Source of the DNA: a virus
Virus record (IMG/VR): IMGVR_UViG_3300006226_000022
Reading direction: 5' to 3' (one strand)
DNA: 64,000 nucleotides
Both the position numbers and the translations under genes were made by a program. The stretch's first letter is position 1. Each line of letters begins with the position of its first letter. The notes beneath the pieces are model-generated. The model worked only from the letters and a program-made list of their open reading frames with translations, searched no databases and was not told the origin of the DNA. Shown one piece after another: positions 61,352 to 63,020 of this stretch.

Positions 61352-61543
61352 TCAAAATAACCGTTTTTGCACAGAAATTTTAGTTTCTGCCGGTTTGATT
61401 TCTTTTACGATATTGCTATCTGACTTGTTTGCAATGCGACAGAGCTGTCGGCAGTATTTCCTGATTTTCCGGCGAGCTATCCGCATCTGCGAATCAGAAA
61501 GCGCAACACCGCGTTCAATCTGTTTGCCGAAAGTTGTCAACAA
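61352..61543 (-). CDS. small basic hypothetical protein immediately outside the TnpB right end
   Basis: 63 aa. Confidence 0.25.
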   Translation of the reverse strand: MLTTFGKQIERGVALSDSQMRIARRKIRKYCRQLCRIANKSDSNIVKEIKPAETKISVQKRLF

Positions 61544-61559
61544 CTTAGCGTCCGGCGCA

Positions 61560-63020
61560 GTGATAGCCCCCTCCCTTACGGGAGGGGCTTCAGATCATGA
61601 CTATTACAGTCATTCTCATCTCTTAACACGGGTAAACTCATCCAGCGATGAGCAGAATAGGCGGAATCACCCAACCTACTTATACCGTCCAATGCTATCC
61701 CATTGGTCTGAAGGATGCGTAATCCTTCTGTTTTTATATTCAATGCTGCATTTTCATCACGTTCGTTAAAACTTCCGCATTCAGGACATATCCATTCTCG
61801 AATACATAAGTCTTTAACTTCTTTGTTCTGAAATCCACAGCAATGACAAATCTGACTAGAGGGATACCATTTGTCAATCTTGATAAATGCACCGCCTTTA
61901 GCCGCGAGCTTGTAAGATAAAAAAGTGCGAAACATTCCAAAACCATTGTCATAAGTCGCCTTGCCTAACTTGAGGCATTGCGACATGTTTCGCATATCTA
62001 TATCTTCACCTATCACATAATCGTATGCCTTGGCTATCGTACATGTACGTTTATGCAAAAAGTCCTTGCGTTGATTCTTAACTTTTTCTTGTAATCTAGC
62101 GACTACAAGCCTTTGTTTTTTCCATCTACCTGATTTTAATTTTTTGTGCGAAAGTGTACGTTGTGCTTTTTGTAATTTCTTTTCAGATTTACGATAATAT
62201 TTAGGATAATTACCATCCCTATTCTCACTATCTTTGTAGAGTTTAGGGCTACTGTAATCCAACCCTAACACATTATCAGGATGTGTTTGTGTTAATTTAG
62301 GAATCTCTTTTTCATATTCAAAACATACAGAAATATAATACTTTCCACTCTTTTCTTTCGTAATAGTGGCTTTCTTTAACATCCAGCCAGATTTAGGCTT
62401 TCTATGCTTTACAATCTTCACCCAGCCTGTTTTAGGTAACTTTATGTAATCGCCTTCGATCTGAATGTTACCATTCACAAAATTTGTAGTATAACTATCT
62501 TTACTCGAATGTTTTGCCTTAAACTGAGGATGGCATTTCTGATCAAACTTCGTTAGAGGCTTGCCGCCATTTTTGACACGTTTCAATGCACGTTTCTTGT
62601 ATTTAATACCGTTCTTTTTGACAAACTTATTGTATTCTGACCAAGCATCTTTATAATTTAACTGTACATTGCATAATGACAAAGAATCCACATCCTGCAT
62701 GTACTCGTGTATTCTTTTGATAGATGCAGGTGACTGATGTGTCGCAAAAACACTGTCTTTATCCTCACCAAGCATCACATTCCACAACTTTCGGCAACAG
62801 CCGAAAGTCTGTGCGAACTGCGATTCTTGCTCTTCGGTAGGATAAGCCCTAAAACGAATAGCAATACTACGTGTGTTCTCTGTTGTATGCTTGCGACGTT
62901 TACTCATTTTGATTACATATCATCATAGAAATACATGCAACAAAAAACAAAGTTTTTCTACATGATCTTATTATCGCCAGACCCATCCCTTACGGAGGGG
63001 ATTTCTTTACCGGTTAAAAT
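61560..63020 (-). mobile_element. IS200/IS605-family (IS1341-like, tnpB-only) insertion sequence with hairpin ends
   Basis: tnpB flanked by near-identical GC-rich hairpins: right end gccccctccc-ttac-gggaggggc (61566..61588, contains the tnpB stop codon) and left end cccatccc-ttac-ggagggg (62982..63000), each adjacent to CATGATCT / AGATCATG; no tnpA. Confidence 0.55.
61576..62907 (-). CDS. tnpB: TnpB (IS605 OrfB) RNA-guided nuclease, full length
   Basis: N-terminal HTH RFRAYPTEEQESQFAQTFGCCRKLWN; VLGLDYSSPKLY (RuvC-I), VIGEDIDMRNMSQ (RuvC-II), CHCCGFQN...CPECGSFNERDENAALNI (zinc finger + RuvC-III); TTTCTATGAT-class motif 22 nt upstream of ATG. Confidence 0.8.
   Translation of the reverse strand: MSKRRKHTTENTRSIAIRFRAYPTEEQESQFAQTFGCCRKLWNVMLGEDKDSVFATHQSPASIKRIHEYMQDVDSLSLCNVQLNYKDAWSEYNKFVKKNGIKYKKRALKRVKNGGKPLTKFDQKCHPQFKAKHSSKDSYTTNFVNGNIQIEGDYIKLPKTGWVKIVKHRKPKSGWMLKKATITKEKSGKYYISVCFEYEKEIPKLTQTHPDNVLGLDYSSPKLYKDSENRDGNYPKYYRKSEKKLQKAQRTLSHKKLKSGRWKKQRLVVARLQEKVKNQRKDFLHKRTCTIAKAYDYVIGEDIDMRNMSQCLKLGKATYDNGFGMFRTFLSYKLAAKGGAFIKIDKWYPSSQICHCCGFQNKEVKDLCIREWICPECGSFNERDENAALNIKTEGLRILQTNGIALDGISRLGDSAYSAHRWMSLPVLRDENDCNSHDLKPLP

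Follow-up and report, generated by a model that had tools for sequence, protein, structure and literature searches.

We analysed a 64,000-nt stretch of viral DNA (IMG/VR record IMGVR_UViG_3300006226_000022; hereafter the window), which is a phage genome encoding a portal protein and a UvsX-like recombinase, with nearly all genes on the minus strand. Within it lies an element that comprises a left end (LE), a promoter-like spacer, an intact tnpB gene and a structured region that runs into the right end (RE) (Table 1). This element is very probably a non-autonomous insertion sequence of the IS200/IS605 family (IS605 group). The original prediction, made from the letters of the DNA, had placed a tnpB-only IS200/IS605-like element at 61352-63020; the type stands, but the coordinates shift to 61560..63013, and 61352..61559 turned out to be a separate, truncated phage gene. 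The G+C content is 32–40% within tnpB versus 44–53% in the flanks.

Table 1 The tnpB element, its target, its tnpB-less copies and its closest relative (positions in the window, except for the last row)
Feature	Position	Strand	Remarks
Element	63013 to 61560 (1454 nt)	-	LE, promoter-like spacer, intact tnpB, ~150-nt structured region overlapping tnpB end
TTTAA, predicted target and TnpB TAM	63014..63018	-	Directly 5′ of LE; flank, not element
LE, CCGGTAAAGAAAT plus imperfect palindrome CCCCTCC-GTAA-GGGATGGG (62982..63000)	62975..63013	-	Direct repeat of RE hairpin
Promoter-like motif TTTCTATGAT	62922..62931	-	15 nt upstream of tnpB ATG
Copies of TTTCTATGAT, first bases	1271, 29978, 33602, 51318, 57721, 59641, 62931, 63761	-	Last but one upstream of tnpB
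tnpB coding sequence	61576..62907	-	443 aa, including non-conserved ~25-45-aa tail through omegaRNA region
Predicted omegaRNA scaffold	61560..61712	-	5′ limit approximate; overlaps tnpB 3′ end
RE hairpin CCCCTCCC-GTAA-GGGAGGGG	61568..61587	-	Perfect 8-bp stem, 61568..61575 with 61580..61587
RE terminus ATCAC	61560..61564	-	Boundary/cleavage placed after 61560
Predicted omegaRNA guide, 16 nt, TGCGCCGGACGCTAAG	61544..61559	-	Flank sequence just past right end
5′-truncated phage gene, phrog_21015 family	61352..61558	-	Starts at right-end junction
Solo copy, 40 nt, CCGGTGAGGAAATCCCCTCCCGTAAGGGAGGGTCTATCAC	33284..33323	-	LE terminus, one perfect hairpin, RE terminus ATCAC; TTTAA at 33328..33324
Degenerate third copy, about 36 nt, TTTAACCGGTAAGGAAATCCCTTTCGTAAGGAACAC	25123..25158	-	TTTAA, LE terminus, decayed hairpin
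L042 element	NCBI GCA_003324335.1, contig QMCE01000841.1: tnpA 7586-8008, tnpB 8001-9338		

The TnpB protein contains the Pfam domains HTH_OrfB_IS605, OrfB_IS605 and Cas12f1-like_TNB (E-values 3e-13 to 3e-21). Its RuvC triad D217/E301/D384 aligns to D191/E278/D361 of ISDra2 TnpB, and the zinc-finger cysteines (CxxC...CxxC) are C354/C357 and C374/C377. The open reading frame (ORF), the Pfam matches and the ISDra2 alignment thus agree with the earlier call of a 443-aa TnpB with intact RuvC motifs and zinc finger. The intact triad and zinc finger set it apart from TldR-like, catalytically dead and domesticated TnpB relatives. The best natural match among solved structures was ISDra2 TnpB (8H1J, 8BF8/8EXA; E about 1e-58), and the artificial intelligence-designed nuclease 9YYG scored slightly above it. 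A search of 5.8 billion proteins yielded a single close homologue, P0001 (445 aa), with 64% identity over 418 aa and zero gaps; the remaining homologues, mostly about 365–375 aa long, were at most 49% identical and covered the first 86–91% of the query.

The gene for P0001 lies directly downstream of, and overlaps, the gene for a 140-aa Y1 transposase in the L042 genome. Judged by its sequence, the L042 locus represents this element type in its autonomous form, with tnpA+tnpB. The two genomes have nothing in common except tnpB. The elements share the omegaRNA helix layout, the RE type GAAG-hairpin(GTAA loop)-...ATCAC, a homologous LE palindrome and a tnpB frame that stays open almost to the end of the RE. 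They differ in that L042 carries the Y1 tnpA and a canonical TTGACT-17-TATAAT promoter, and in the segment between the target and the LE hairpin. The L042 contig also contains a second, different tnpB (370 aa) at 14246..15358 (minus strand), 5 kb downstream of tnpA+tnpB.

The right boundary was placed by comparison of elements. On the minus strand the RE of the window reads ...CATGATCTGAAG-CCCCTCCC-GTAA-GGGAGGGG-GCTATCAC|TGCGCCGG..., and that of L042 reads ...GGTTTGCCGAAG-CCCCTTGC-GTAA-GCAAGGGG-TATAATCAC|AGGGTT...; the two are similar through CAC and unrelated beyond it. The structured 3′ region of the element accordingly ends at ...hairpin-GCTATCAC. The same kind of end followed by divergence is found in L042 (...TATAATCAC|), in a solo hairpin copy elsewhere in the window (...TCTATCAC|) and in many phage-borne TnpB loci of more distant relatives, which end in GAAG-hairpin-GTAGTTCAC|. 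In an exact-pattern scan of IMG/VR, other TnpB elements proved to carry GAAGCCCCTnnCGTAAGnnAGGGG at the 3′ end, with TAGTTCAC next and contig-specific flanks beyond. Because several elements share hairpin-(N3-5)TCAC and then diverge, the RE boundary falls at 61560 and the guide would start at 61559. TnpB is known to use a guide of ~16 nt that adjoins the RE on its 3′ side (PMC8612924), and the guide predicted from this boundary, TGCGCCGGACGCTAAG, lies where one had been expected from the letters, near 61540..61560. With up to three mismatches allowed, the window contains no second match to this guide.

The more distant phage-borne elements, of ISAam1 type and ending in ...GTAGTTCAC (loci L001–L047), resemble the element in the window in having a terminal hairpin after GAAG and before TCAC. 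In one distant relative, present in two contexts (L003 and L004), the LE hairpin is nearly the same as the RE hairpin and the element starts right after TTGAA. By contrast, their proteins are 31–47% identical to the TnpB of the window and about 365–375 aa long, with the stop before the omegaRNA, and the upstream part of their omegaRNA (ACGG..GGAAC..CCGAAATTTACGCCTGTGGAG) cannot be aligned with that of the window.

As single-stranded DNA (ssDNA) the RE hairpin folds at −10.9 kcal/mol (z = −4.4). The tnpB stop codon does lie in its loop, as had been reported (61578..61576, minus strand), but this position carries no meaning beyond an accident of frame: the GTAA loop contains TAA in one frame, so the stop is a by-product, and the L042 tnpB reads the RE hairpin in another frame and stops after it. 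Nor does the TTAC once read in the loop qualify as a target motif, since it is GTAA on the element strand. In most homologues the stop codon comes about 130 nt earlier than in the tnpB of the window. A conserved protein extension was considered for the 45-aa tail and rejected: the alignment with P0001 ends at residue 418, the window and L042 tails are unalignable, and the hairpin falls in a different frame in each of the two genes. Here, then, selection acts on the RNA and not on the tail of 25–45 aa.

Next, we compared the structured region with its counterpart in L042. The predicted scaffold has a minimum free energy of −63.2 kcal/mol, and over ~150 nt each the fold z-score is −3.3 in the window and −5.4 in L042. 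Both sequences fold into a common helix layout, with a first stem-loop, a multibranch stem carrying two hairpins, a fourth hairpin and a terminal hairpin. Pairs were counted on a MAFFT alignment of the two sequences, with the structure derived from one of them. All 35 pairs tested, in five helices, are paired in both sequences; 14 of them changed on both sides between the window and L042, with no one-sided changes and no broken pairs. When the 3′ partners were slid by one to three columns as a control, pairing fell to 36–50%, with zero to one double change. Two of the compensatory changes in L042 fall in the stem of the RE hairpin, and several conserved G:U pairs point to an RNA rather than a DNA structure. 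The omegaRNA-type 3′ structure that had been proposed is thus borne out to this extent, and the conserved structure fits an omegaRNA. When the pattern GGGTGATTCC...GAAGCCCC was searched for in metagenomes and IMG/VR, the L042 contig alone was recovered, and this omegaRNA type has just two known members, the window and L042. In a MAFFT alignment of the 150-nt 3′ regions of 13 relatives, the part upstream of the last hairpin was too divergent for use.

At the left end, the minus strand upstream of tnpB reads ...ACTGTAAT-TTTAA-CCGGTAAAGAAAT-CCCCTCC-GTAA-GGGATGGG-TCTGGCG..., and contains a 27-nt ungapped copy of the RE hairpin region (62979..63005; 78% identity). By chance, the window should contain 0.00 matches to an 18-nt pattern of this kind. 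The LE palindrome differs from the RE hairpin by a 1-nt deletion and one substitution, and is homologous to the LE of L042, AATCCCCTTTCGTCAGATAGGGGT. Three LE-type copies occur in the window, and their similarity starts exactly at TTTAA, with unrelated sequence upstream. The likely target and transposon-associated motif (TAM) is therefore TTTAA at 63018..63014, so that the element would begin at 63013; the exact position of cleavage is a prediction. The flanks, ...TTTAA| and |TGCGCC, show no target-site duplication. Terminal inverted repeats were absent beyond a chance-level 8-mer. The inverted blocks CATGATCT (62961..62968) and AGATCATG (61592..61599) noted earlier are present; as functional inverted repeats they were rejected, because an 8-nt inverted match arose in 4.5% of shuffles and the pair is missing in L042. 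The left-end pattern CCGGTNANGAAATCCCCT gave 125 hits in IMG/VR and GTDB genomes, all attributable to chance, none with the hairpin or TTTAA.

The predicted ends fit the scheme known from IS608, where each position of the cleavage site is recognised by one of the four bases immediately 5′ of the hairpin foot (PMC3201880, PMC5934647). At the left end, guide and cleavage site are AAAT and TTAA here versus AAAG and TTAC in IS608, with the pairing pattern of IS608 (here pair, pair, A.A, pair). At the right end they are GAAG and TCAC versus GAAT and TCAA, again in the IS608 pattern, the last pair having co-varied from A:T to C:G. The distance from cleavage site to hairpin foot is 13 nt (LE) and 8 nt (RE) in the window, compared with 19 and 10 nt in IS608. 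Like ISDra2 and IS608, the element has subterminal palindromic sequence instead of inverted repeats, though stable as a hairpin only at the RE, and its omegaRNA would come from the 3′ end of tnpB and the RE with a guide from the flank; unlike them, it lacks tnpA, its omegaRNA sequence is unrelated, and its predicted TAM is TTTAA, not TTGAT or TTAC. The ISAam1 TnpB provides a precedent for a TTTAA TAM (PMC12908284).

The element sits, as far as sequence can tell, within a phage gene. The truncated gene at its right-end junction matches positions 58–101 of the 103 in the phrog_21015 profile. Although a word-based protein search with the 68-aa downstream ORF returned no candidates, an exhaustive HMMER search identified homologues of about 100 aa, matched through their C-terminal half. 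A profile built from 14 of these homologues scored 65.0 bits on the window as it is (positions 52–100) and 70.5 bits after in-silico removal of 61560..63013 (positions 49–100). Codons TTT-AA|T then span the rejoined junction and recover the conserved F-N of the GFNxxDA motif, so the proposed boundaries keep the reading frame. The predicted guide thereby falls in the conserved core of the gene (GFNxxDAxLL). The window contains no N-terminal half of the gene, and the frame meets a stop 7 codons upstream of the junction, so truncation of the gene either preceded or followed the insertion.

The promoter-like motif upstream of tnpB, TTTCTATGAT, recurs in eight exact copies in the window, all on the coding strand and 15–90 nt upstream of start codons. 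With at most one mismatch it was matched 22 times against 7.7 expected. It is probably the −10 region of the phage's promoters. A separate observation concerns the 5′ region of tnpB, where 62784..62797, which encodes GCCRKLW, is a 14-nt perfect inverted match to 61524..61537 in the flank, 23–36 nt past the right end (about 0.01 expected by chance in a 2.1-kb region). The GCCRKLW region forms a 9-bp hairpin that is missing in L042.

The two tnpB-less copies in the window (Table 1) both lie directly after stop codons. With its target the solo copy (33328..33284) reads TTTAA-CCGGTGAGGAAAT-CCCCTCCC-GTAA-GGGAGGG-TCTATCAC; as ssDNA it folds at −8.9 kcal/mol (z = −2.5). The degenerate copy at 25123..25158 has no stable fold. 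Both termini of the solo copy derive from the element, and the hairpin is not a native motif of this phage, since the LE type is shared with the unrelated genome of L042 and the TCAC end is family-wide. The solo copy is most simply explained by the collapse of a full element, its two hairpin repeats having recombined or slipped against each other. A mobile miniature with one hairpin is less likely, given that a TnpA dimer binds a pair of palindromes. The solo copy resembles palindrome-associated transposable elements (PATEs), IS200/IS605 derivatives akin to miniature inverted-repeat transposable elements and repetitive extragenic palindromic (REP) elements in being short, intergenic and ORF-less, with both insertion-sequence termini around a palindrome. 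It differs from PATEs and REP elements in that one hairpin takes the place of distinct LE and RE palindromes, and in its copy number of only one or two. We speculate that the scar, by leaving 40 nt between the TAM and the former target, would prevent the TnpB and omegaRNA of the lost element from cutting again. If so, a collapse scar, unlike precise excision, would be the type of loss expected to survive TnpB-enforced retention.

Either side of the solo hairpin, a ribosome-binding site and the first ~8 codons of a gene (AAGGAGAAGAAAATGAAAT..AG.CG.GA.TTTTTGGC) are alike, at 33230..33290 and 33470..33530 (minus strand). The two starts resemble twin-arginine translocation signals (MKSRRDFLA and MKYSREFLA), and their local alignment scored 44, against a maximum of 29 in 300 shuffles.

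Several results weigh against the reading of the locus as a non-autonomous IS200/IS605 element with an omegaRNA. As ssDNA the LE palindrome reaches −4.4 kcal/mol, no better than shuffled sequence (z = −0.45), compared with −8.0 (LE) and −10.1 (RE) kcal/mol in L042; of the claim that the same hairpin stands at both ends, the resemblance in sequence survives and the equal stability does not. A covariance model, built from only the last 42 nt of the relatives, had its best window match at 61600..61560, ending on the predicted base, but the match was weak (16.7 bits, E about 0.14). The covariation described above comes from two sequences only, with the structure taken from one of them. The original prediction had also pointed to RNA models of TnpB as a check, and an Rfam scan (E ≤ 10) was matchless apart from a spurious hit to a rotavirus cis-acting replication element. 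The 5′ end of the omegaRNA, the guide length, the TAM and expression are all predictions. No obvious Shine-Dalgarno sequence precedes tnpB. Last, a tblastn search with all L042 ORFs, including TnpA, found no tnpA homologue in the 64-kb window.

The same holds for the search for an unoccupied locus: no empty site, presence–absence polymorphism or related phage was found in phage records, IMG/VR or the metagenomes of the Joint Genome Institute (JGI). Megablast of 59500..64000 against 50,697 phage records, the kind of comparison from which exact boundaries had been hoped for, gave zero matches. Searches of IMG/VR and JGI metagenomes with the flanking proteins found nothing, as did exact-pattern scans of IMG/VR with the reconstructed empty sites of the window and L042, and exact look-ups found neither the TnpB nor the neighbouring NlpC/P60-like protein on record. 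A close relative of the phage in the window is thus missing from the collections searched.

The missing tnpA has a ready place in this reading. Only 74 nt separate the LE palindrome from tnpB, and tnpA is absent here and present in the closest relative, so the element is a non-autonomous derivative from which, by this comparison, tnpA is lost. Copies that carry tnpB alone are a recognised state of the IS200/IS605 family. The element is well preserved, but it is an ordinary IS200/IS605 member of a well-known kind, and it leaves knowledge of the family unchanged.

By analogy with the mechanism described for TnpB and its omegaRNA (PMC8612924), transcription through tnpB and past the right end would yield an omegaRNA composed of the scaffold (61712..61560) and the guide (61559..61544). 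The TnpB–omegaRNA complex would then cut DNA in which TTTAA directly precedes the guide sequence, that is, the uninterrupted insertion site, and an element-bearing copy would serve as the template for repair. Among phages, the element could in this way be copied into co-infecting relatives that lack it, or exclude them. To reach new sites by transposition, the element would depend on a Y1 TnpA acting in trans and on a working LE hairpin; neither is evident here. Taken as one proposal, the element, whose guide together with its TAM matches the conserved core of a small phage gene family, would be an RNA-guided, free-standing and homing-endonuclease-like agent that cuts co-infecting relatives with the uninterrupted gene and then copies itself into them or excludes them, and the copies at 33.3 kb and 25.1 kb would be scars of recombination between hairpin repeats; we offer this combined picture tentatively and hold it to be possible rather than probable.

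A related account overlaps with this one and differs in the beneficiary and in the role of the ends. The element would have been immobilised and kept by the phage, with a decayed LE, no tnpA and a phage promoter driving tnpB/omegaRNA; it would serve as a homing device or RNA-guided weapon aimed at co-infecting relatives with an uninterrupted gene. The weak LE hairpin next to an intact RE and omegaRNA would suit such a history, as would a guide that falls within GFNxxDAxLL, the conserved core of a phage gene family, and the presence before tnpB of TTTCTATGAT, a 10-mer found elsewhere only upstream of the phage's own coding-strand genes. Homing of transposons between co-infecting phages has been discussed as a theoretical case (PMC13565253). 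However, the LE hairpin of L042 is also irregular, so the LE of the window may still work, and the promoter-like spacer, which can be loosely aligned with the region of the tnpA promoter in L042, may be the element's own. Palindromes of IS200/IS605 elements are normally imperfect. Relatives that could show selection or spread were not found in the collections named above. We consider retention by the phage a doubtful alternative to the ordinary non-autonomous insertion sequence.

It is improbable that the locus is an inert relic, with an open tnpB frame, an unexpressed or non-functional tnpB/omegaRNA and a conservation that merely reflects recent arrival. The missing Shine-Dalgarno sequence would fit such a relic, as would the 45-aa tail, which means that ribosomes traverse the omegaRNA region; but several phage genes behind TTTCTATGAT likewise have no Shine-Dalgarno sequence. 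Furthermore, at 64% protein identity to L042, all catalytic and zinc-binding residues and every tested RNA pair are kept, the latter through the compensatory changes described above, which indicates purifying selection in the lineage, on the protein as well as on the RNA. The least credible alternative, now largely refuted, regards the hairpins as the phage's own intergenic stem-loops (terminators or processing sites) with tnpB as a free-standing gene between two of them: the same hairpin does occur at 33.3 kb without tnpB, and every hairpin copy follows closely on a coding-strand stop codon, but TnpB elements of many unrelated phage contigs, as well as that of L042, carry hairpin plus TCAC at their 3′ ends, the L042 LE has a homologous AATCCCCT... 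palindrome, and on the coding strand the hairpin lacks the T-run that would follow it in a canonical intrinsic terminator.

Read as a non-autonomous IS200/IS605 element, the locus offers a delimited TnpB/omegaRNA unit with a predicted TTTAA TAM and a 16-nt guide, a usable candidate for the mining of compact RNA-guided nucleases. It is also a concrete phage locus at which TnpA-independent (non-restorative) homing could be examined, and its single-hairpin, tnpB-less remnants suggest a route by which such elements are lost.

Other repeats were noted in the window. A palindrome of ~31 nt, TTTAATTATACAATATTGTATAATTAAAC, is present in at least nine intergenic copies (~7878, 12404, 28935, 29537, 33624, 42495, 44622, 52538 and 63779) and may be an operator, a terminator or a promoter-associated repeat. 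A 249-nt duplication (33591..33834 and 63750..63998; 87.5% identity) comprises the C-terminus of the portal gene, the palindrome and the promoter motif; the second copy is cut off by the end of the window, and the duplication implies a further portal-like gene, or a fragment of one, about 30 kb away. The NlpC/P60-like gene (63236..63704, minus strand) appears split: a 52-aa frame (MIGDIIL...) begins at an ATG with a Shine-Dalgarno sequence at 63704 and would join a 144-aa frame (…WVHCGIYVGEG…) if the T7 run near 63664..63670 were one base shorter, which could reflect a sequencing error, a pseudogene or programmed slippage. Tandem repeats occur in the ORF at 4960..6366 (5866..6342; period about 237 nt, 85% identity) and in that at 9619..12012 (10266..11458; period about 279 nt, 66–70% identity).

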